DNA of 64,000 nucleotides from Octopus sinensis (taxonomy: Eukaryota), in contig NW_021834219.1 in the NCBI RefSeq assembly GCF_006345805.1, positions 1 to 64,000 on the forward strand. Reading direction: 5' to 3'. Shown here one piece after another: positions 1,050 to 64,000 of this stretch; the first letter of the stretch is position 1; each line of letters begins with the position of its first letter. Under the pieces are notes generated by a model, which was not told the origin of the DNA, made no database searches, and was given only the letters and a program-made list of their open reading frames with translations. Both the position numbers and the translations under genes were made by a program.

Positions 1050-1698
1050 TTTTCTTTATTGGCAACACAGGGCTGCACACAGATGGGACAATTTACAAAG
1101 TAGAGCTTTTCTTTTGGGGGATGAAAAAAACAAAAAACAAAAAATAAAAGAAACAAAAAAAAGGTGGCGTAGGTTTTCGATCAAAAGGGATCGTAAAAGG
1201 GAAAAAAAAGAACAAAAAATAAAAATAAAAAAAAAAAAAAAAAGAGAAAAGGAAAGGAACAAAGAAAAAAGAAATGAAAAAAGAAGAAAACGGGAAAAAA
1301 GGGGAAGAGGAAAAAAAAACGATCAATAGGGATCGTGTATCACAGTGTTATGATGTATGGTGTAAAGGGGAGTCAAGTTAGGTTTATCCGTGGGAAGAAA
1401 GCCTACGAAAAAGACCGCGTAAACCTCGGTCAATATTATAATATGTTACCACATTTGTTTGCAAGTGGGTAACCCGCTTTTCAGTTTCTGGGTTCATAGG
1501 ATTATGCTCAAGGTGGCTCCGTCATTCATACGTGCCATTCTTGCTACATTCACCCATCTTTTTTTAAAACATTCGCTAGACAAACTTGCCTCTCTACTCT
1601 CACTTTCCTTTCAAGTGGTACTTGAAGAAGTGATGAGAGATTGACCAGAGAGGAAAGTGTTTGTCTCCAATCCTTTCAGACGCGTCCACCAAATACAT
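1050..1698 (-). mobile_element. L1/Tx1-type LINE, 3' end (ORF2 C-terminus plus 3' UTR)
   Basis: Minus strand translates, with frameshifts, to CIWWTRLKGLETNTFLSGQSLI...KYHLK...KKRWVNVARMARMNDGATLSIIL*. The IW..R motif is typical of L1/Tx1 ORF2 ends. A T-rich UTR ends TGTCCCATCTGTGTGCAGCCCTGTGTTGCCAATAAAGAAA. Confidence 0.65.
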
Positions 1699-1704
1699 AC
1701 ATAC

Positions 1705-16511: not shown

Positions 16512-19500
16512 TTCAGTAGTTTTATTTTTTATAGAGTGCTTTCACTTCACTACTGAGCGCAGCTCTGTGTGCCTTGGGTGCTCTGATGGTTATTGTATGG
16601 GAAGTGTTCTGCGTAGGATGTGTGCAGTGCCTAGTAGTGCAATTTTCTGTACGTTGTATGTGTTTGTAATTCCTGGGGGTTTTGTTATGTATTTGTCTGA
16701 ATATTTTTTTATCATGCCTAATGCAACTACTATGATAGGAATTGTTTCTGTTTTTAGATTCCACATTCTGGTTACCTCCATTTCCAGGACTTTGTATTTT
16801 GAAAGTTTCTCCATTTCTTTTAGAGACACGTTGTCATCTGCCGGTATTGATACATCAATTAGAAAGCATTTTTTTTCTTCATGATCTCTGACAACTATAT
16901 CTGGTCTGTTGGCCTTAATTTCTCTATCTGTGTGTATCGGCATATCCCAGAGTATGGTTGCTTTCTCGTTTTCTGTGACCTTTTCTGGTGTGTGCCTATA
17001 CCATCTTTTTTCTGTTGTTATTTCATAATGTTGGCATAGCTTCCAGTGTATGTAGGTTCCAACTCTCTCATGTCTGGGCAGCCAGAGATAATATGATTTA
17101 TTGTTTCTTGTCCATCTCCACATATTCTGCAGTTACTTGTTATATTTCTTTTCATTACATGTTTTTGGTAATTTCTGGTGGGGAGGCTTTGGTCTTGTGC
17201 TGCAATTAAAAATCCCCCTGTCTCTGATTTGAGTCCTGAGCTTCTCAACCATTGCTGGAATTTTTCTTTGTCTATTTCTTTTGCATTTAGTTTAGTCCAG
17301 TATTTACCGTGGAGGGGTTTTTCTTGCCATCGTTTTATCATGGTTTTTTGCTGTTCTAGTTTTAGTTTGCATTTAATTTGTTTTATAGCTTTTGTTGTTT
17401 CTTCATCTTCTTCTTCTTTATATTTTTTAGGTGGTATGATTTCTTGTTTGTATTTGTCAGCTTCCTTAAATACTGAGAACAGTTTTTTGTTTTGCTTGTG
17501 TTTTGCCGCTATTTGTATCAGTTTTCCTTCCTTCTGAAGTAGATATTTTTGCAGTCCTATGGTTGTTATTTTATAGTAGTTTTCCAGCTGTATAAGGCCT
17601 CTACCACCTTCTATACGTTGTATACATAGTCTTTCTATGTCAGATTTTGGGTGATGCATCCTAGACCCTGTCATTATTTTTCTTGTTTTCCTATCTATTT
17701 TGGTCAGTTCATTTAGTGTCCAGTTAAGGATATTGTAGCTGTAATTTATAACTGGGACAGCTAAAGTGTTAATACCTATTATCTTGTTTTTAGCATTGAG
17801 CTCTGTTTTTAGTATTGATCTAACTCCTCTATAATATTCTTTTTTTATTTTCTCTTTCATTTGTGTGTGTTGTGTCTTATCTAGTTCATGGATTCCTAAG
17901 TATTTGTAAGTTTGGCTTTGGTCTAATTCTTTTATTTCATTGTTTTATCTAGTGTGATGTTGCTACTCTTAACTAGTTTTCCTCTTTTCATGGTTAATTT
18001 GGCGCATTTTTCTAATCCAAATTTCATATCTATTTCTTTGGTAAATCCATGAACTGTCTTTAATAGTGTTTCCAGCTGTTTGTCATTTGCAGCGTATAGT
18101 TTTAGGTCATCCATATATAAAAGGTGGCTGAGCGTTTTGCCGTAACATTTATATCCGCATCCAGTTCTATTTAGCATGTCAGATAGAGGTGACAGTGCCA
18201 AGCAGAAAAGGAGTGGTGAGAGCGTGTCTCCCTGGAATATTCCTCTTCTAACGGGGATGGCTTTGGTTTTCATGAGTCCCTCTTTTGTTTGGAGCTGTAG
18301 CACTGTTTGCCATTTATTCATAGAGTGCCCAATGAATTTTATAATTGTTGGTGCTACTTTGTTAATGGCTAGTGTTTCGATGATCCATGTGTGGGGGATG
18401 CTATCAAACGCCTTTTTGTAGTCAATCCAGGCCATACTGAGGCCTTTCTTCTTTCTGTGGCTGTCTTCAGTTATGGCTTTATTGATCATTAGTTGATCTT
18501 TACAGCCGTATGAGCCTTTGCGGCATCCTTTCTGCTCTTCTAGAAACAGGTTGTTTTCATCTAGGTGCTTGTTCAACCTTTGCGATATCACTGCAGTAAA
18601 TGCCTTGTACATGGTAGGGAGACAGGTTATTGGTCTGTAGTTTTCTGGTTTTGCTGTCTCATTTGATTTGGGAATTAAGATGGTATTTCCCCTTCGTTAG
18701 CCATTCAGGCATTGTCTCTCGCTCTGCTAGTATGTTGTTAAAGTTTTCAGCCAGCTTTTTGTGCATTCTTGTTAGATATTTCAACCAGAAGTTGGGGATC
18801 TTGTCATGCCCAGGTGCCTTCCAGTTGCTTACTCTTTGCAGTGACTGGGTGACCTCTTCAGTTGTTATGGGGATCCAAAGTTGCTCAGATGCTGAGTTTG
18901 TTATTTCAATACTCCTTTTTTTTGGTTGTTCTTTCGCCGACCATATTTCTCTCCAGAATTCTTCCACTTCTTCTGCCGTTGGTTCTGCAGTGATTTCTAT
19001 TTTATTTTTGCCAAGTTCTTGGTAGAACTTTTTGGGGTTGGAGTTGAACTTTTTGTTTTGTTCAAAGAAGCGCTGGCGTTTCTCGCACCGGCGGATCCTT
19101 TGTGCTTTGGCAAGGATATCTTGCTTTAGCTTTTCTTTTATCTCAGGTAAATCTTTTTGTGTGATGTATTTGCGGAGTATTTTTGTTTTCTTTTTGTTGC
19201 TCAGTAGCGTTGATTGTCTACTGATTTCATTAAGAATCGACAGATCTTTTCTTATTTTTTGTATTTTGTTTTGGATGTTATTTATCCACAGGATTTGTTT
19301 GGGTGGTGTTACTCCTGTTTGGACGGGTTTGAGTGAGTATCCAGCTTCTTTTGTGGCTGCAGTGGCTGCTGCGTATACTAAGTTATTTAGCTCAGTGATA
19401 TCGCTTTTTGTTTCAGTGGCTATTAGTTCCGTGACGGCTAGGTTAATGCTGTTTATAATTGGTGTTGTTGTTTCGTCTATTTTGATTTTTGGGAGGTATG

Positions 19501-20528
19501 ATCGGTGGTCCATTTTGAGCTCTGTGGTTTTTAGTTCTTTGATTATTCTACTTTTTATATTATCATATTCATTAGGCTCCTCTTCCTTGTTTCCAGGTTT
19601 TAGATTTGTGTCGTTTTCTTTCTTATTTGTATGTTTGTTTGTCGTGTTGGGAGTGTTACATTTGTCTTCGTGTTTTACTGTTTCAGTGTTTATATTATTG
19701 GGCATTGTTGTGTGGCTTCTATCTACATTTTCCTGATGTATTTTTTCTTTTAGATGTTCTATTTCTATTTCTGATATTTTTTTTGCGTTGAGAATATATC
19801 TCCGTATATTTGCTAGTTTCTTAGGGTTCATTGCTATATCCAAGTCTATATTTATGTTGCTTTCCTTCCATATTTTATATGTATGTGTTGTTGTGTTTTC
19901 ATTCTTTGGGTAGAGCACTGCTGTAAAATAGGCATGTAGGATAGAAATGTATTCCTCACGTGTCCATTTATGTCTTTTGGGTTTTATTTGCGGGACATGA
20001 GGAACAACGTCCGGCCCATTATTTTGACGGTCGTCATTTTCGTAGGGTACCGGTCCGTTCATTTCTGTTGTCACATTGTTTTGCACGTGTAGTTTTTCGT
20101 ACATTTTATGTTGTAAGTTTAATGTACGTACTTCCCGATTGCTATTCTTGGGTTGAATAATATCGGTGTTATTTAATTTCTTAGTAGTTTTTTTTGTACA
20201 TAGTGTTTGTGGTCGGAGATGATCTAGTGTTGATGGGTCGTAATCTACCACGCATGTTTTCATGTGTTGTGTTAGAGGTGGAGATGATATCGAGTTAAAA
20301 TATATCATTTCGTTTCGAAAATAGTAATAAATTTCAATTAGTATCACTTACTCGGATACAGTTCATTCCTTTGTCAGTAAATTTTTGGCTCCATACGATG
20401 TCTTTGTATTCGATGTTTGTGGATAGATTTCGGAGCGCTGTTTTAACGCTCTCACATGTTTAACGTCCCCGGTGCAATCTTCGTTTAACGTCCCCGGTGT
20501 AATCTTGTTTAACGTCCTCGGTGTAAAA
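16512..20528 (-). mobile_element. R4/Dong-type RLE non-LTR retrotransposon, near full length, frameshifted
   Basis: One original ORF split into 18659-20347, 17932-18612, 17018-17860 and 16590-17123. RT motifs WIDYKKAFDSIPH, GIFQGDTLSPLLF, HLLYMDDLK. CCHC finger CRICGDGQETINHIISGC. RLE motif RPDIVVRD..FLIDVSIP..K..KY. (TAA)n on both flanks. Confidence 0.92.
17932..18612 (-). pseudogene. Reverse transcriptase core of the R4/Dong-like element
   Basis: EQKGC, DYKKAFDS, QGDTLSP and YMDD motifs. Confidence 0.95.
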
Positions 20529-23024: not shown

Positions 23025-23215
23025 TCGTTAGCCACTACACACATTTTTTTCTCTCCTTGTTTCTCTACTTGTTTTTCTGTGCCCCTTTCTGCAGAAGAGC
23101 GTAGGCTCGAAACGTAAAAGACTTTTACTATTTCTGAGCGTTATATTAATACATCTGTTTGTTTTCTACACCACCTGCCTTCGTCTTTTGTTTTCTCCGT
23201 AAACCCTCCCTGTGT
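23025..23215 (+). mobile_element. Solo terminal repeat of the PLE at 39.1-40.7 kb
   Basis: Reverse complement of ~39160-39340. Other copies at ~36535-36670 (+) and ~56807-56975 (-). Confidence 0.8.
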
Positions 23216-23275
<60 letters not shown>

Positions 23276-23392
23276 TACTGCTATTTAGCCCCAGGAAACA
23301 CCGTTTCCAGCTGACCATGTGAAACAAGCGTTTTGTGTCCTTATGTTTTCAGACAGGGGAGATAAGCACCTCCACCCAGCAAAGCCAAATAT

Positions 23393-23433
23393 CCACAGAC
23401 TAGTTTCAGAGTCATTGCTCTTCATCAGTCTGG
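23393..23433 (-). ncRNA. Minimal type I hammerhead-like motif, canonical core
   Basis: Minus strand CCAGA-CTGATGA-AGAG-CAATGA-CTCT-GAAA-CTA-GTC-TGTGG; palindromic stem III (ACTAGT). Confidence 0.75.
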
Positions 23434-23454
23434 AGTAGCTTGGACTTGGTAGCT

Positions 23455-26400
23455 TGGTTCTTTATTACAGGCACAAGGCCTAGACACAGAGGGGACATAC
23501 AAAGACATGCGGGAACAAAAAACGCATGAAGGATGAATGTGAAATGAATAAAATTACAATGCAATTGAGACGACCATCTCGCCCCCGCTGCGAGATGAAA
23601 TCGTGGATTCCTTTTCCTTAAAACTTTACATTTTATATAATTTGTAGCTTCGCTTTTACCCTACAATTATAAACATTTTAAACAAATGTTCATACAGGAC
23701 TTACATATTTCTTTTCCTTTTTAAACTAAAAGTCACCCAAATATTTATCACAGTATTTAAAATACTTTTGAAAACCTGTTCATTCATCAGTTGCAAGATT
23801 TACTTGTCGAACGTGTCTTTGCATCGCTGCGTCGTTTTTGCTGGTTGAGTGGTTTTGTGATGCTTTGCAGAAGTTTATGAGTATAGCGTCACCATTCTTT
23901 GGGTGAACATTGCTGAGATGGAGAAAATGAAGACATATGCGACAGCAACGGGGAGTCGGGCTTCCGTCGTCTCAGGCCTGCTGAAGCAATACGAAATGTG
24001 CTGGAATGAAGACATGGCTAAGAAATATGGAAAATAGCTAGAGATGGTGCAGAAAGAGAGGCCATCAAAGGAGGAAAAGGCGAAAATGGAAATTATGGTG
24101 GTGGAATATAAATCGTTTTCAAGGAAAAATAAAAGAATACAGAGGCGCAACTAAGGATGCTGTGGAGGAGTGTTTGAAGGAATTGAAGGATGTGTCGTTT
24201 TTCACAAGAGGCAAGAAATACGGGTCTGTGGAGATCAGATTTATTTCAGAGGAGGCAGCAAGGAAATACGCCAATGAGACGTTAACTAGCGGAAATTGGA
24301 TGCTCTTTCCTAAATCCTGGGTAGAAGTCCAACGAGGATTAGGGTGGGTAGGATCCCGCCGAAAATAGAGCCGGAATGGTTAATAGCAGCAATTTTTTTT
24401 CTGGAAAAAAGGAAGAAGTAGAGATAGTTATGATAACCAGAAACCAACAAATAAGTTGTTGGCGGTTTGGTTTGGAGGTGGTTTTCACGGCAAGTCAGAC
24501 AGTATACGATACCATACCGAAGACACTGGAATTGCCAAACGAGGACAAGCTGGATATAATGTTGCTATGAATGTGGCAAAAGAGGTCACATTAGAAGAAG
24601 GTGCCCAGAAATAATGGAAAACATAGAAATGGAAACGCAAGAAGGCGTGATGGAAGAGAAGAAACAGACACGGGAAGAGGAACAGAGAGCTGATTTTGAG
24701 GAAGCTAAGTCAAGGAAGAGAGAATGGAGGAGCTCATCGCCGAAATTTGAACATGGACAGAAATATAAATCACGGGATCAAGTGAGATCACAGAGGAAAG
24801 AAAATACAAGCAGAACATCACCATGTGAACATGCAGACTCACAATCGCTCAAACAAACAGATTTACAGACACATAAACTCATAATCATACATACACACGG
24901 AAGCGTAAAAGCTGACAGAGTTGCAGAAACTAAAAAGCACAGATACAGAGACACAACATGGAGACTTACAATCACACAAACATGCAGACCCGCAGACAAA
25001 AATATATACACAGACATACAGCTACAAATAAATATACAAGAAGAGACACATGATAGTACAGAGTCACAAAAACTAAAAAGAGCAGGCATGCAGACGTAAG
25101 AGGAACGGAATATATTTGATAACAAATCGGTCGACACAAAAAATAGAAATGAAAATAACTAAAATGAAAGACATTGTTAAAGTGAACCTCTCAGATGGTC
25201 ACAATAGGGAGACGAGATGGAAAAAGATAAGTACAGAAAGTTAAAAAAGGCTTTCTCATCAGATATAAACCTACTGGGGCCCGAGGTGAATTTCGAACCC
25301 AGCACTCCAGTGGTGAACTATGAGGAAATTAAGAACTATACAAAATGGTAAGTAGACTTTTATTTTGAAAAGAACTGTTGAAAACTGTTGAAATAATTGA
25401 AATAACGTAACCACCCCGGAGCAGGGCTGGGTGGCCGTCCCATATTCATTATATAATTTCACTATTCCATTCTTTCATGTGTTGTTGTCCCCACATGTGT
25501 GTATTGTCCCATCTATGTTTAGCCGTTGTGGGTAATAAAGAAATCAGTTGCAAAATTTTCTTGATTTTCCTTTTGTTTCTCCATAAAAAGTTCAAATATT
25601 TATTTTTCTTAGGTACAGTCTTTACAAAATTATAATGACTTACCACTTCTGTCTCTCACAATGTCTTTCAATTTTGCAATGTTTTAAGTTGTCGTGTCCT
25701 ATTTCACTATAATTTTTCTTTTTGTTTGTGTTTTTCATGTTGTCTCTTTGTCTCTATATTTCTGCTGTTTTATGGTTTCTTATAATTGCGTCTGTGTGTC
25801 TGTGTGTTCGTTTGACTGTAATTCTACATGTTTCGTCTGTGTGTCTATGTTTTTAGGTTTCCGTAAATCTGAGTTGTCTTCTTTCTGATCTGAATGACTC
25901 TATACTTATAAGTCCTTTACTGGTAATTCTATCGGTAAATTTTCTCCGTTTCTCGTCGTTGGTTGGGTTTCCTCTTCCATTGCTTTACACTTCTTCAATT
26001 CCACGGTAGTCAGTGACTTCCTTCCCTCTCTTTTCCTGGGTCTCACCTCCGCAAAAATCCCGTCATGTTCTCTTTTCTGTTTCTGCATTTTTTCTACCAT
26101 TATATTTTCCTAAACAGTCTCCTCTACCATTTCCACTACTGCTCTAGGGCATTTCTTTTTCAAGTGCCCTCTTTCACCACATCCGTAACACTTTGGGGAG
26201 GGGTCACCCATCCAACATTATTTTCAACTTTTCTCCATTTAGTAGTTTCTGAGATTCCGCCATTTCGTCGTAATATTTCGGCCTCATTTCACAGATTATC
26301 TCTACACCATAGCCCCATTATTTCATTTGTTGTGTTCGGCTTATTTTGCCAATCTTCAGGTCTTCACTTCCCTTCTCCAGCGTTGAATTAAAAATTGCGA

Positions 26401-26900
26401 CTATTACCCATTCTGGGTCTATTTGCGGTGGGTTTCTTCCCACCCTAATCCTAATGATTCTTTTGACCAAACAGTTTGGCATTAAATTCCATTTCTCTCC
26501 CTGTATCAGCGTGTTGTCAGTTTTTTCGCTTCCTCTTCTGATACAAAGGTTACTATTATAGTCGCATATTTCTTTCCTCTTGTAAAGAAAGTCATTCCTT
26601 CTTCTATTTGTTCCTCCAAGATTTCCTCTATCTCTTTCTGCGGCGCATGTTCTATTCTATTTACATTCGAAAATGTTCTGAATCTGACTGTCTTCTTTTC
26701 CATTTTTCTTTTTCCTCTTCAAGCAAGATCATTTTTATATTTGACCCTTCTTTTTTATCATATCATAATATTTGGCTATCTCCACCTTCAGTAGCCTCTG
26801 CGTAACTTTTCATTTTTTCAATTGTTTCACTACCACCCAACAACGGCGGTTTTGCTAAAAGAATCGGCTAGATTCCTTCCAAAAACAACATAAAAAGTGG
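23455..26900 (-). mobile_element. Outer ORF1-only (HAL1-like) retroposon, ~1.7 kb net of the nested insert
   Basis: TSD CTTGGTAGCT at 23445-23454 and 26901-26910. Decayed ORF ~26820-25640: EKMKSYAEAT...FFTRGKKY...RIRVGRNPPQIDPEW...CYGCGERGHLKKKC. 3' tail at 23455-23505. Confidence 0.75.
23797..25542 (+). mobile_element. Inner ORF1-only (HAL1-like) retroposon
   Basis: TSD ATCAGTTGCAA at 23786-23796 and 25543-25553. Decayed ORF from 23918: MEKMKTYATAT...FFTRGKKY...RIRVGRIPPKIEPEW...CYECGKRGHIRRRC. Tail TGTCCCATCTATGTTTAGCCGTTGTGGGTAATAAAGAA. Confidence 0.8.
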
Positions 26901-27190
26901 CTTGGTAGCTGTCGATGCTTATTCACCTTTGAAAACATATAGATTTCAAGTGAAATAAATTCACTGATCTACAAAATTAGAAATATTACATTTCTAAATG
27001 TCTTAGAGAGATTTATACACTAGCAGCACGATTAAATCATGGTTTGTTGCCAACTTAATGTGACAGTCCCAGGAAAGGTTTAGAAATGTAATATGTCTAA
27101 TTTTGTAGATCAGTGAATGTATTTCACTTGAAATTTTGTATGTTTTCAAAGGTGAATCGGCATCGAGAACTAACAAACTAAGCTATTCCA
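26901..27190. repeat. Inverted repeat (~100 bp arms) of the PLE-like host element
   Basis: TCGATGCTTATTCACCTTTGAAAACATA...CATTTCTAAA / TTTAGAAATGTAAT...TATGTTTTCAAAGGTGAATCGGCATCGA. Confidence 0.85.
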
Positions 27191-27592
27191 AACATAAGAA
27201 CAACCCTCTATCAGTTGTCGGCTGTTTATCTACTCCACATTCCGAACAGAATTTAAAATCAAAGAGAAAATAATTCACCGCCACACAAAGTGGCACCTGC
27301 AATGCTAGAAAGTTTATAATTTTCACATTACGATTTTGCGATATCATTCACTGATTCCTATAGTATTTTCTATAATACTGACAGACGAAGGTTCAGCGTC
27401 ACCACCTGCAATGGAGTAAGGATTATTGATGAGTATTTATTTCTAAACGAAATTAGCAAGCTAATCTAATACATTTTCTTGCGGTCAGTTCAAATAAAAT
27501 GTGCTGTCTGTGGCTAAAGTGTCTATGACACTTATATGTAGCAATGCTGGTGCTCACTTACCCTTAGTCATACACACACACACACACACACA

Positions 27593-39154: not shown

Positions 39155-40718
39155 TATATAAACAAAAGACGAAGGCAGGTGTAGTACAAACAAACAATGT
39201 ATTAGTGTGGCGCTCAGGAATAGAAATAAAACAAGTCTTTTACATTTCGAGCCTACGCTCTTCGACAGAAAGATACACAGAAAAGAAACAAGGAGAGAAA
39301 CAAGGAGAGAAAAAAATGCGTGTAGAGGCTAACGATCCAACATGGCGTTCTGATTTCAGGCAGAAGTCAGAGATGAGAGGTCAGACGTTAGACGCTAGAG
39401 GGATAGTAAGGGAGATAACAGGGTCAAGTGACCTCACTTCAACATGAATGTGCGTGTGTGTATAAGAGAGTATGTATGTGCGTGTGAAAGAGGGCTGGTG
39501 GTCTGGACGTGTGTATGTATGTATGTATGTATGATGATGTATGTATGATGTGATGTATGGTGTAGTGTAGTGTGGTGTGATGTTGTGGGGAGGTGGGGGT
39601 AGGCGAGAGTGGGGAAAGCCCATGTGGGGGTGTGGGTTTGGCTGGGGTTGGGGTAGAGTGAGAGGGGGAGAGAAGAGAGAGGAGGGGAGGAGAGAAGAGA
39701 GAGGGGAGGAGGAGGGAAGAGAGATAGAGGAGATGAGGTGGAGAGGGGAGGAGAAGGAAGGAGAGGAGGATGGGGATGGGAAAGGAGGGGAGAGGGAGGG
39801 AATGAGAAGGGGAGTGAGGGAGCAGAGAGAAAGAGAGAAAGGGAAGAGGGAAGAAGAAAGAAGAAGAGGGAAGAAGGGAAAGAAGGGAAGGGAGGGAAAG
39901 AGAGTAGGGGTGAAAGGATGAAGGACTGAAGAGAAGTAGGAGTCGGGGGGGGGGGTTAGATGAAAAGGGGGGGAGAGTTGAGACCAAATGGCGTAAAAGA
40001 GCGAAGAGAGAAGATTAATCCCAGTTCACGGCGCAAGCGGGAATCCGGATGGCCTCTGTGCAACGACAATCCGAACACAGACAGGTGTTGCAAGGAGTGA
40101 CCGATGGAGCGGAAATGGCGTGAGACTGGTGTGTCATTAGCATGGCGGAGGTCTTGGAGGTGTTCCGCGAACCGGTCAGCCAAGCGGCGTCCCGTTTGTC
40201 CGATATACAGAGAATGGCAGAGAGAGCAGGAGATGCAAAAGATGATATTGCTGGAGGTGCAGGTAAAGGAGTCGATGATGCGATAGGGCCGATGATGGGT
40301 GCCAGTGAGGAGGGTGGTGTTGGAGAGGTAAGGGCAAGTGCGGCAGCGTGGGCGGGAGCAGGGGAACGAGCCAGGTTGGGAGGTAGGGTCAGGGAAGAAG
40401 CTGTGGACCAAAAGGTCTCGTAGGTTATGGGCTCGTTTGAAGGATGGGAGGCGTCGGTTAGGGTCGGTGTGAAGTGGACGGGTTTGACTGGAGATGCCGG
40501 AAAGCTCGAAGAATGGTGCGAGGGAGAGGTAGGGTGGTGGGGTGGTAAGTGAGGGGAAAAGGGAGGCGAGAGTCTGCAGGCGGGTTCGGGGAGAGCAGAT
40601 GCACGGTCTACGGAACGTGCTCTGGCAAGGGCGGTGTGGATAGTGGTGAGAGGGTATCCACGTAGGATGAAGTGGCGAGCCATGAGTTGAGACTGAGTCT
40701 CAAAGTCATGGTCGTCAC
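39155..40718 (-). mobile_element. Neptune-like PLE, 5'-truncated: GIY-YIG endonuclease, low-complexity 3' UTR, terminal repeat
   Basis: ORF 39956-40411: CSRPRCRTC...FTCTSSNIIFCISCSLCHSLYIGQTGRRLADRFAEH...PVSRHF...H...RELGLIFSLRSFTPFGLN. Upstream HFILRGYP thumb motif. Truncated at (TA)n. Confidence 0.9.
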
Positions 40719-59690: not shown

Positions 59691-59921
59691 TATTTCTTTA
59701 CTGCGCACAAGGGGCTAAACGCAGAAGGGACAAACAAGGACAAAGGGATTAAGTTGATTATATCGACCTCAGTGCGTAACTGGTACTTATATAATCCACC
59801 CCGAAAGGATGAAAGGCAAAGTCGACTTCGGCGGAATTTGAACTCAGAACGTAAAGACAGACGAAATACCGCTAAGCATTTCGCCCGGTGTACTAACGTT
59901 TTTGCCTGCTCGCCGACTTGC
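59691..59921 (-). mobile_element. SINE family C, full length with 17 bp TSD
   Basis: TSD ATAGTATAAATAATACA at 59674-59690 and 59922-59938. tRNA-like head (GAGTTCAAATTCC); core GTCGACTTTGCCTTTCATCCTTTCGGGGT; LINE-like tail. Confidence 0.9.
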
Positions 59922-60218
59922 ATAGTATAAATAATACAGGTGACCCGTCAGTAATTCCAGCCTAAAGGCGACTTTATAAGCAACAGTAAAAATTAGTACC
60001 AGCATTGCCTGAAACAAGTGTTAAAAACGACTCAAAATACCACTAAAAGCATTAACTTTTTGAGTCGTCTTTGACTCTTGTTTCTAGCAATGCTGGTACT
60101 ATTTTGTGCCCTTGTTTATAAATAAATGAATACATATATTCCTTAACAAAAAATAATAATAATAATAATCAACGAAACAAACGAACAAAATAAAATTTAA
60201 TAAAACATATCCACCAGA

Positions 60219-61500
60219 ATGGCTAGCCACCAAAAATCCAACAAAAACTGGTCTGATAATGAAGTCGACGTTCTTATCAGCACATGGCATTGCCTTACCC
60301 AAACAGAGAGCATAGGCGCTTCGTGTCTGAACGAAATTGCTAAACGAACAGTTCACCATTTGCAAACTCGATCTGAACAGCAGATACAAAATAAATTAAA
60401 ACAAATCGAAGTTGCTTTTAAATTAATAAATAAACACTTCGATAAACTGAGATGTGTTTTCTCTTCGAACGCATCACCGGCGCAACAACAGCAACCTGAA
60501 CAACAAACTCAGCGGCAACAACAACAACAACAGCTACAGCAACAACAACAACTTCAGCAGCATCAACAACAACCTCAACAACAACCTCAACAACAACCTC
60601 AGCGGCAACAACAACAGTCTGAACCACTCCTTGATTCATCTACAATGGCCGATTTGCTAAACGAAACGATTGACCCCCCCCCTAGTCATCAGGGTCACAC
60701 AACAGGAAGCACCACTCCTTCCTTTCAATGCCCCAGCAGCTCAATCATCATCACTGTCAACATCATCTCCTCTGATTACTACTACTACACCCACTATCGA
60801 TCCACAAACATCTTTGTCTACCGCTATCTCATGGAATCCACCTCCTCAATCACCCTCACTGTCAACATCTCTTCTGCCTACTACTACTACTACTACTACT
60901 ACTACTAATGCTATCTCAAGGAGTCTACCTCCTACAGATCACAAAGGTCGCCAAAACTTCAACAAACTATCATCTATACCTCTCACAACTCACACACGCA
61001 CCTACACACCCACTCGAAACCCCATCATTTGCCGATATTCTCTTCGCCATAGATTATGCACTGATAGAGACTGCAAATTCACCCATTTACCTGGAACAAA
61101 ACGCTCAATCCCCACAAACTACAACAGCCACCACCATAATACATACTCTATTACAACACCACCACAACCACCAATATCTCAAACAAGGAATCCTCAAATC
61201 TGCCGCTATTCCCAGCGAGACAGATTGTGTTTTCACAGGGATTGCCCCTTTACCCATCTCCCGGGGACTCGTCGGACAAATGATAAGATAAATAAAAATA
61301 AAAGCAAAAAAACCTACGACTCATATAGAAATAACCACTCATATAAAAATAACCACAACCACCGTCACCTACAGTTCCCTAGACAGGAAACTTCTTCCTC
61401 TTTTTTAGCTATAATGAATCTAGCAAAAGAACTGGAAAAAAACATCCGAGCCATCACCCACCACCATCCACCACTATCACCCCACTGCACATGCCATTAA
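60219..61500 (+). pseudogene. ORF1 of CR1-group LINE (frameshift near the C-run at ~60675)
   Basis: WSDNEVDVLISTW...RSEQQIQNKLKQI (Myb/SANT-like), polyQ, Ser/Thr-rich linker, and two C-x8-C-x4-C-x3-H motifs. Overlaps the ORF2 start by 10 nt. Confidence 0.7.
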
Positions 61501-64000
61501 AAAGCAAACAAATAAGCAAAACACCAAAACAATTAAAACAATCCACTCTCGCCTCAACATTTTTGCTTAACGCCAAAAGCATCAGCCCTACCACCAATAC
61601 TCAAAAATGGAAAATAAAATTCCTGGAGGACTGGGTTGATGCCCATCCAAACCACATCCCTTTCTTCGTCCTCACCGAAACCCATCTTAGTAACCTCCAC
61701 TTGGAAGCCGAGGTAAAAGTTAAAAACTTCAAAGCCATTCGTGCTGATCGTGCTGGCAGAAGAAAGGGTGGGACTGCCATTTATGTTCATGATTCTTTCT
61801 CAACAGAGGCTATGAACATATTTTCCAATGGATACTGCGAAGCAGTCGCTGTATTCAGTCAAACCAACAACTTAATAGTAATTGGGCTCTACAGACCACC
61901 CCAAACGCCCCTACCATGCTTCAAGGAATGCCTCAATAACATAAAGTGTTTCATTCAGCAGTATCAATCTGACAACATCTTAATGATGGGGGACTTCAAT
62001 CTCCCTGGAGTTGACTGGTCTACAAACAGTCTGCCGCCAGGTTCTTCTGTCTCAACCCCTGACAGGGAGGCAGTGGAATCGCTTCATGATTTCATGGATG
62101 TTTTCTTCCTGTCCCAACTGGTGCTCGAACCAACGAGATGTCACAAAAACGTCCTAGACTTAATTTTCAGCAATCACACTGACACTATGCACAATATTGC
62201 AGTGGAGAAAACTCTACTCTCTGATCATGACATGGTTCTCTGTGATCTGAGATTTCACCGGCCAAAATGCAAAACAAACGTCATCCCTCCTGTCCATCCA
62301 TTTGACACTATGGATTGCCACAACGCAAACTGGGACGCGATCATTAATGATCTTGCACAAGTCGTTTGGTCCTTCACGTACACATACACACCCACTAACA
62401 TCAAAAACATCGAAAAGTCCTGGCAGTCATTTGTAGGCACCATTACGAACATATGTGCAAAAGACACCCCATTAAGATCTGCAAACAAATCTAAGTGCAG
62501 AATCGCTGGAAATAGAAAAACTCTCATCAGGAAAATTAAAAGAATTAACAAAAAAAATCAACAAGCTGAAATACTGTCAACAGCAACACACCAACCTGAC
62601 TGCCATCACGTCACTAGAGATTAAAAAACATAACCTCCAAAACAACATGATGTTTATCATCAATAGTCAGAGAAGAGTTGAAGAGGCCTGGGCCATTGAG
62701 AAGATCAAACTTAATCCAAAAGTGTTCTTCTCATTTGCAAAAAAAACACAAAGTTACTGGCTCCACTGTTGGCCCTCTGATTGATGAAAATGGTACTCTT
62801 CAAGACAATGCCAAAACCATGGGAGAGATATTGCAGAAACAATATTGCTCTGTTTTCAGCAATCCTGATATGGCTGATCAGGGCTGTATCACTGATGTTA
62901 CTCCCCAATACACTTTATCGGACATAACCTTTGGCGCTCCTGATGTCTTAACAGCGATAAAGGAAATGAAGCATAATTCAGCAGTAGGTCCCGATAGATT
63001 CCCTGCTTGTGTCTTGAAGATGTGTCAACACCAACTTGCACCCCCTCTAGCCAATCTGTGGCGGACTCACTGGATGCTGGATATATACCAGAAAACCTTC
63101 TATCCCAGTCTGCTGTCCCAGTTTTCAAAGAAGGAAACAAATCCCTTGCCGTGAATTACTGTCCAATCTCACTCACCTCTCATATCATTAAGGTATTTGA
63201 GAGAGTGATGAGATCGCGTATGACTCACTTCCTTGAGAGTCATAATATGCTGAACTCCAACCAGCATGGATTCCGTAATGGAAGGGATTGCCTGACGCAG
63301 CTACTGCATCACTTCGATGACATTTTGAGAGCCTTGGGAGAGGGATCCAACTCTGATGTCATCTACCTTGATTTCAGCAAGGCCTTTGACAGGGTTGATC
63401 ATAAGATCCTTCTGAGAAAGCTGTCCAATATTGGTGTCACTGGAAAGCTGCTGCAGTGGATCAAGTGCTTCCTGTCTAACAGAACCCAACATGTTGTAGT
63501 CGAAGGAGTCAAATCCAGCCCAGCCAAAGTCAGTAGTGGTGTCCCACAAGGCACAGTGTTAGGCCCACTTATCTTCATCATCTACATTAATGACATCACT
63601 GACATCATCAAACACAGTAACATCCGAATCTTCGCTGATGATTCCAAGCTCCAGAAGGTTATCAATGGCGTGGATGACCGGGTAAACCTTCAGTCAGATC
63701 TACTGACTGTTGTCCAATGGGCGGAAAAGAGCAACATGTTGCTAAACGAAGAAAAATTCGAATTGATCTACTTTGGAAGGGAGAACTGTGGACTACAACA
63801 TAAACTGGGCTACACATATAAGCAGCAAAGTTGACATGGCCCGCAGAATGTGTTCCTGGATTCTCAGAACCTTCCAGTCGAGAGATTCCCACACCACTAT
63901 CCTTCTCTTCTCCAATTTTGCCCGACCTCACCTTGAATACTGCTGTCCACTGTGGTCTCCCTACACGAAACGGAATATTATGAAAGTTGAAGGTCCCCAA
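61491..64000 (+). pseudogene. ORF2 of CR1-group LINE: AP endonuclease plus reverse transcriptase, frameshifted, cut by the window edge
   Basis: LTETHL, GGTAIYV, LYRPP, MGDFN, LDLIFS, SDHD; YLDFSKAFDRVDH, GVPQGTVLGP, FADD. After a short deletion, another + frame reads WILRTF...RPHLEYCCPLWSP. Confidence 0.93.

Follow-up and report, generated by a model that had tools for sequence, protein, structure and literature searches.

How can a retroposon that encodes nothing but an ORF1-type protein (the product of a first open reading frame, ORF) spread through a genome? The question is raised by a 64,000-nucleotide stretch of Octopus sinensis DNA (contig NW_021834219.1 of assembly GCF_006345805.1, positions 1 to 64,000; hereafter the window), in which one element of this kind lies inside another in opposite orientation. 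We consider it probable, at roughly 0.7, that both belong to an ORF1-present non-autonomous long interspersed element (LINE) family, similar in kind to HeT-A, HAL1 and Ag-Sponge, that was mobilised in trans through a 3′ tail shared with another LINE. An earlier sequence-only reading of this locus had proposed two old ORF1-only subfamilies moved in trans. That proposal is supported by multi-copy relatives, an ORF1-type fold, purifying selection, and a tail in common with a LINE that encodes an apurinic/apyrimidinic endonuclease (APE) and a reverse transcriptase (RT).

Architecture of the nested elements

As the sequence-only reading had claimed, each element is bounded by its own target-site duplication (TSD), and excision of the inner element rejoins the outer one. 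The inner TSD is the 11-bp word ATCAGTTGCAA, which occurs exactly twice in the window (at 23786 and 25543), and the outer TSD is the 10-bp word CTTGGTAGCT, also present exactly twice (at 23445 and 26901). As a chance control, 3000 random pairs of 40-nt windows yielded a shared 10-mer in 2 pairs and a shared 11-mer in 0. The size of ~1.7 kb given in that reading is close to the lengths measured, which are 1746 nt for the inner element (23797-25542, plus strand) and 1689 nt for the outer element (23455-26900, minus strand) after excision of the inner. The host junction was also described as mirrored in an inverted arm, and the empty outer site indeed matches positions 27079-27193 with 87% identity over 117 nt (E 2e-33). 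The parts of this arrangement are as follows.

23445..23454, no strand: outer TSD, left copy (only two copies within the window)
23455..23796, minus strand: 3′ part of the outer element, with the ORF end (not fixed exactly), 3′ untranslated region (UTR) and tail
23458..23497, minus strand: outer 3′ tail, common to the inner element, a LINE stub and a short interspersed element (SINE)-like element
23786..23796, no strand: inner TSD, left copy, made of outer-element sequence
23797..25542, plus strand: inner element, 1746 nt, with TSDs and with contigs bridging its 5′ junction
25505..25542, plus strand: inner 3′ tail
25543..25553, no strand: inner TSD, right copy
25554..26900, minus strand: 5′ part of the outer element, with a broken ORF from the ATG at 26813 (closest match P0015, from O. 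vulgaris)
26901..26910, no strand: outer TSD, right copy
27079..27193, minus strand: inverted arm that mirrors the unoccupied outer site; a high-copy repeat forms the target

Both elements are interspersed and A-rich on the sense strand, and neither has terminal repeats; for this last reason, an origin as a long terminal repeat (LTR) element or a terminal-repeat retrotransposon in miniature (TRIM) was rejected. The strong divergence noted earlier between the two DNA sequences is confirmed, with similarity confined to two segments, a core of 63 nt (84%) and 91 nt at the 3′ end (76%). The outer target repeat (23300-23454 and 26911-27193) is itself a near-perfect inverted pair, with arms at 26943-26998 and 27079-27134 (96%), and is very high-copy.

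The ORF1-type protein

Each element carries one broken ORF, in which the following features were located.

23918..25351, plus strand: inner ORF1-like gene, broken, encoding two RNA recognition motifs (RRMs), a CCHC knuckle, a linker and a C-terminal domain (first and last residues as in P0010)
24563..24604, plus strand: inner CCHC knuckle (zf-CCHC E 0.003, under the Pfam cut-off)
26149..26190, minus strand: outer CCHC knuckle (zf-CCHC E 4.7e-5, over the cut-off)

The motifs EKMK(T/S)YA.AT, FFTRGKKY and RIRVGR.PP.I.PEW and the single CCHC knuckle, all named in the sequence-only reading, were found in both elements. The same reading held that each ORF passes from the knuckle straight into a short UTR and tail, with no APE or RT. 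This is correct in that no APE or RT remnant was found in either element by tblastn with three ORF2 proteins (best E 0.035) and that the inner stop at 25351 lies only 191 nt upstream of the TSD. However, the ORF runs on for ~250 codons past the knuckle, and these encode a charged linker and a conserved domain of ~65 amino acids (aa).

A HMMER profile built from in-frame pieces of the ORF recovered 520 clusters (50% identity) at E<=1e-3 and 171 at <=1e-10; the family had escaped a word-index search of proteins made with a single 70-aa piece of the outer element. Seventeen of the 26 matches looked up bear names, and these are Octopus bimaculoides, O. sinensis, O. vulgaris and Argonauta hians, with no other organism among them. 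The inner ORF shares its first and last residues with P0010 (O. bimaculoides A0A0L8HJ83), and the protein closest to the outer ORF is P0015. No APE or RT domain was detected in 30 long matches of this family, nor among the top 25 families listed for 110 aligned matches.

On the 110 aligned members, Pfam recognises zf-CCHC only, in 12 of 110, and its RRM family is unmatched by sequence. Among 150 hits, one CCHC knuckle is present in 15 and two or more in none. An AlphaFold model made from 110 sequences nevertheless contains two beta-alpha-beta-beta-alpha-beta domains at residues 59-217 (pLDDT ~90), followed by the knuckle. Foldseek ranks proteins with tandem RRMs highest for this model (E between 4e-4 and 1e-3, with low TM scores), and in a wide fold search the matches are ferredoxin-like folds of a generic kind, with Z at most 7.8. 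L1 ORF1p is not among the listed fold matches, though the two proteins may still be related. The ~65-aa domain after the charged linker is conserved in seven hits and the inner element; modelled by itself from 7 sequences (pLDDT 71), it matched nothing in Foldseek at E<=1e-3 and has no clear fold counterpart, the best score elsewhere being Z 5.7, to ferredoxin-like folds.

In the relevant section of PMC4120745, type I ORF1 is defined by an RRM directly upstream of a CCHC motif, and the corresponding part of PMC5203782 describes the RRM/CCHC variants of non-mammalian animals as fitting the Tx1 clade. The octopod product is thus predicted, from its modelled fold, to be a type I LINE ORF1 with the order RRM-RRM-CCHC, linker and C-terminal domain, and not an ORF1 of the mammalian L1 type.

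Comparison of the inner and outer ORFs over 139 locally aligned codons gave a ratio of nonsynonymous to synonymous change (dN/dS) of 0.22, below 1 as the sequence-only reading had anticipated, with dS at 1.6. Differences are concentrated at third codon positions (0.29, 0.27 and 0.48 for the three positions). Post-insertion decay of both elements pushes the ratio upward. Purifying selection on the ORF between the two subfamilies is supported. A tree of 21 core domains has good support on 3 of 18 branches and joins P0010 to the P0015 group (99/95), but such a tree cannot separate autonomous from non-autonomous members.

Five Octopus gene models (P0007, P0022, P0044, P0062 and P0082) fuse pieces of this ORF to unrelated genes (WD40, LDLa, astacin) or to the end of the LINE ORF2. 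These are likely to be annotation chimeras and, less probably, cases of exonisation.

A shared 3′ tail and its likely helper

Both elements end in AATAAAGAA, which abuts the TSD of the inner element and lies 3 additional bases away from that of the outer, and neither has poly(A). The ~45-nt tail also terminates two further elements in the window, and so it is not private to the nested pair.

1051..1700, minus strand: 5′-truncated LINE stub of the L1/Tx1 group with a U-rich UTR (ORF2 C-terminus at 1497-1697, tail at 1052-1090)
59693..59915, minus strand: SINE-like element of ~220 nt with the same tail (B-box-like motif read by eye)
23563..23603, minus strand: hairpin in the outer 3′ UTR, loop AGCGGGG (z -2.3)
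25405..25445, plus strand: inner counterpart of this hairpin at the homologous position (z +0.5)

A degenerate pattern derived from three tails occurs at three places in the window and in 0 of 100 shuffles. This pattern is circular for the three places from which it was derived, and the fair test is therefore a shuffle test of alignments, in which alignment of the tail with the LINE stub scored 40, compared with maxima of 30-32 over 1000 shuffles. The inner and outer elements have ~150 nt of UTR in common, whereas the stub and the SINE-like element share only the last ~45 nt. The tail pattern gave 0 matches in the metagenome, viral and prokaryote collections, and relatives of the ORF2 gave 0 confirmed loci there.

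Despite a frameshift, the C-terminus encoded by the stub is 60% identical over 68 aa to P0165/P0169, and P0169 is a protein of 1148 aa with APE, RVT_1 and zf-RVT domains. P0168, a relative of P0169, matches human L1 ORF2 with E 4e-50 versus E 4e-24 for R2. Relatives of this family therefore have APE, an L1-group RT and a C-terminal zinc domain. We take the label 'Tx1' from a resemblance in motifs and from the listing of L1-Tx1 as an L1-group class for O. vulgaris. An L1/Tx1-group LINE of the stub type is the likely helper for the ORF1-only elements. The 3′ end of the stub adjoins a (TATC)n/(TCTG)n microsatellite, which possibly reflects a target preference.

The use of the same tail by the SINE-like element, in which no Rfam match was found, suggests that this octopus element is also moved by the L1/Tx1-group LINE, which therefore likely serves two kinds of parasite. 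With regard to the two UTR hairpins, the loop is AGC(A/G)GGG, the stems differ, and significance is reached only in the outer copy. Folding of whole UTRs was no better than that of shuffles (z 0.86, -1.62 and -0.06), and a conserved RNA structure in the UTR is a lead, not a result.

Contigs from public sequencing runs

Contigs of four public runs (four of the 24 listed) were aligned to positions 23300-27050 of the window at 80% likeness, and the alignments discussed here come from the 32 pieces listed out of >8,600. Each of the four runs supplied coverage for every one of the 30 bins, with 1649-2471 contigs per run, most of them <95% alike. Many of these fall on the flanking repeat and the tails, and depth peaks at both tails, as fits the SINE-like copies of the tail. 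At the positions listed within the ORFs, depth rose to as many as 34 contigs for the outer element and 16 for the inner.

Many contigs connect ~23440 with ~26900, as expected of an empty outer site, and one does so with the exact 10-base overlap; the outer target is therefore itself a repeat present in high copy, and its other copies lack the insertion. In three runs, a single contig each (85-90% alike) passes directly from 23796 to 25615 and skips the inner element; these contigs probably represent one locus that holds an outer-family copy lacking the inner. Record 25 of run X8 aligns at 25242-25524, across the inner stop, through the UTR and into the tail, beyond which it has 95 more unaligned letters. 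Because of these letters, it is read as an inner paralog at another site, with the order ORF end, UTR, tail and new flank. Record 12 of run X12 (25217-25454) also extends across the inner stop.

Two runs, X1 and X3, contain near-identical contigs across the 5′ junction of the inner element, and an assembly artefact was rejected because of this agreement, although one of the two may come from the source sample. Both outer junctions are spanned by contigs ~86% alike in X12 (records 8 and 15), a distant run. The outer insertion therefore probably predates the species split from X12, or else the same host-repeat site was hit repeatedly. Contigs that carry eight Logan/ENA clusters of the ORF are 1.5-2.8 kb, comparable to the elements, but such contigs are short anyway and this is not evidence.

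Alternative explanations

Several points weigh against a non-autonomous family moved in trans. Both elements are fossils, since both ORFs carry several frameshifts and stops, and the copies seen are thus dead. Continuity from ORF to tail is evident in only one clear paralog among the 32 pieces listed out of >8,600; the alignment of an outer-family paralog ends at 23649, before the tail, with 88 unaligned letters in X1. The tail match to the LINE covers only ~41-52 nt, and the helper LINE is joined to a homologous ORF1 only in P0007, a probable chimeric gene model. The lack of APE and RT in the matched proteins carries little weight, ORF2 being a separate frame. Finally, the dN/dS value comes from locally alignable, hence conserved, segments and is lowered by this choice.

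A first rival keeps the same non-autonomous family but does not make it a simple internal deletion of the helper: its ORF would have come from another LINE lineage or an extinct Tx1 lineage, and its tail would have been captured from the helper. Such an event would alter the origin of the elements and leave their mode of spread unchanged. It draws on the contrast between the ~45 nt common with the stub and the ~150 nt of UTR common to the pair, on the spread of type I ORF1 over many clades, also including I, Jockey, R1, L2 and CR1 (in the section of PMC4120745 on these types), and on the fact that no Tx1 ORF1 was seen next to ORF2. The consistency of RRM/CCHC variants with Tx1 (PMC5203782, same part) speaks against it, and a Jockey origin of the ORF is opposed by the knuckle counts given above, as the same section of PMC4120745 gives three knuckles for Jockey-lineage ORF1s. 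We regard tail capture as unlikely. Atlas neighbours of the ORF include ZCCHC3-type RNA-binding domain (RBD) pairs and DUF4283, which are leads only.

If the two elements were instead sporadic internal deletions of two-ORF LINEs, arising during or after insertion, no self-propagating ORF1-only family need exist. TSDs would also flank deleted copies, L1-Tx1 is represented in O. vulgaris by 80 families of which 13 were recently active (according to the family counts in PMC13282606), and the single clear ORF-to-tail paralog is all that the listed matches provide for ORF2-less copies. Such deletions would, however, require clean loss of ORF2 and the same short homologous UTR in two subfamilies separated by a dS of ~1.6. 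A paralog elsewhere has the identical ORF-UTR-tail join, an ORF2 remnant is found in neither element, and the only stub with ORF2 sequence in the window carries a UTR that is longer and different. Sporadic deletion accordingly seems to us a slim prospect. Less credible still are processed pseudogenes of host genes from a ZCCHC3-like RRM-RRM-CCHC family, with AATAAA serving as the polyadenylation signal. A single intronless ORF, TSDs and AATAAA near the end are what such copies would display, and Atlas feature scores to ZCCHC3-like clusters are 0.89-0.90. Nonetheless, no poly(A) follows AATAAA, a LINE and a SINE end in the same tail, and the family comprises hundreds of divergent clusters, with several fragments fused into unrelated gene models as is usual for repeats.

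Proposed mode of spread

For the preferred explanation, a non-autonomous family mobilised in trans, the following course can be proposed. An intact master would have been transcribed from its own 5′ end, given that both copies are full length with a similar 5′ start. The ORF1 protein would then coat this RNA and may join the helper ribonucleoprotein, as proposed for HeT-A, HAL1 and Ag-Sponge. The helper APE-RT protein could bind the ~45-nt tail that the elements share with it, nick DNA, and copy the RNA by target-primed reverse transcription, which would generate the 10-11 bp duplications observed. In the last step, which the nested arrangement records, the outer element entered the high-copy repeat, the inner later entered the 3′ coding end of the outer, and both decayed. 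In the discussion of this class in PMC5786205, retained ORF1 proteins 'likely function to multimerize' with proteins of the autonomous partner, and by analogy the octopod ORF1 protein may have the same role.

A more far-reaching version is tentative, and we would sooner doubt than adopt it: the elements may form a long-lived, self-diversifying ORF1-only octopod lineage that persists by tail mimicry of Tx1-group LINEs beside dominant SINEs. This version would add a split into numerous subfamilies in the course of tens of millions of years, and a non-copying protein kept under purifying selection. If true, it would be the first Tx1-dependent and the first non-telomeric invertebrate radiation at such size, and would provide a natural setting in which to test why its own ORF1, with an extra C-terminal domain, is retained by a parasite.

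Other elements in the window

A near-complete LINE in several frames lies at 16590-20347 (minus strand), with RVT_1, zf-RVT and a long N-terminal ORF. No APE-type endonuclease was seen in its scanned pieces, and it is presumably R4/Dong-like. At 60204-64000 (plus strand), Myb/SANT-like and CCCH-like ORF1 pieces are followed by APE and RT in a second LINE, presumably CR1/L2-like. A GIY-YIG piece of a Penelope-like element is present at 39956-40699 (minus strand; Pfam E 0.005), and the sequence at ~23025-23200, just left of the nested elements, is presumably a Penelope-like end.

Novelty and significance

Our search of the literature turned up no account of ORF1-only elements that derive from Tx1 or occur in cephalopods. 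This search covered papers only; Repbase, Dfam or the Zenodo consensus library for O. vulgaris could already list the family, perhaps as 'L1-Tx1' or 'Unknown'. The kind of element is known from flies, mosquitoes and mammals, and the cephalopod member appears new within the literature searched. No new mechanism is demonstrated. What is new here is the tail common to the ORF1-only elements, an L1/Tx1-group LINE stub and a SINE-like element, by which a likely helper is named, also for an octopus SINE. A cephalopod case tied to the L1/Tx1 group, in which the tail is specific and ORF1 is under selection between deeply separated subfamilies, adds an independent origin, and makes it possible to ask cleanly what an element that borrows ORF2p gains from ORF1p. 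It also accounts for a set of 'uncharacterized' proteins and chimeric gene models of Octopus, which are explained as transposon ORFs missed by Pfam.

Comparison with known systems

HAL1 ends in poly(A), and the octopod elements differ in ending in the specific tail AATAAAGAA instead. The proteins differ as well, in that mammalian L1 ORF1 is of type II (coiled coil, RRM and C-terminal domain; Transposase_22), whereas the octopod protein has two predicted RRM folds and one CCHC knuckle. Transposase_22 is not among the 25 of 40 Pfam families listed for the 110 members, the others all being single-member. Because the ORF1 type is wrong and poly(A) is absent, the octopod elements are not HAL1. The label 'HAL1-like' in the sequence-only reading thus describes their strategy well, since HAL1 is a non-autonomous element from the L1 group that encodes ORF1p only (in the portion of PMC5753468 that treats it) and the octopod elements are likewise non-autonomous and ORF1-only, but membership does not follow.

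The same reading regarded ORF1-only elements as mainly mammalian, which does not hold. In the relevant section of PMC5786205, HeT-A (Jockey), HAL1 (L1) and Ag-Sponge (CR1) are grouped as ORF1-present bipartite non-autonomous LINEs, and those three clades are the only ones listed there. Like HeT-A and the other ORF1-only telomeric Jockey elements of Drosophila, the octopod elements have a Gag-like ORF1 alone and need the ORF2 of another element. However, they are interspersed with TSDs instead of forming telomeric head-to-tail arrays, have one knuckle rather than three, and likely depend on a helper of the L1/Tx1 group; because they are not telomeric, they are not HeT-A. HeT-A-type ORF1-only lineages are able to spawn new ORF1-only families, as indicated in bioRxiv 10.1101/2025.06.09.658640. 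Ag-Sponge of Anopheles shares the ORF1-present bipartite non-autonomous design (PMC5786205, same section), but is derived from CR1, and its likeness to the octopod elements is by description only.

Within octopods, the closest counterparts are the L1-Tx1 LINEs of O. vulgaris, which are present, recently active and of the likely helper class. Table 1 of PMC13282606 gives 13 recently active families with 421 insertions, 2.29 Mb and ~5.4 kb each. Neither the text consulted nor a term search of the supplement of that source revealed an ORF1-only family, its Zenodo consensus library being outside the comparison. At the level of the protein, the octopod product resembles type I ORF1p in its predicted RRM-RRM unit directly before the CCHC motif, and differs from it in its single knuckle and in the conserved ~65-aa C-terminal domain that follows a long linker.

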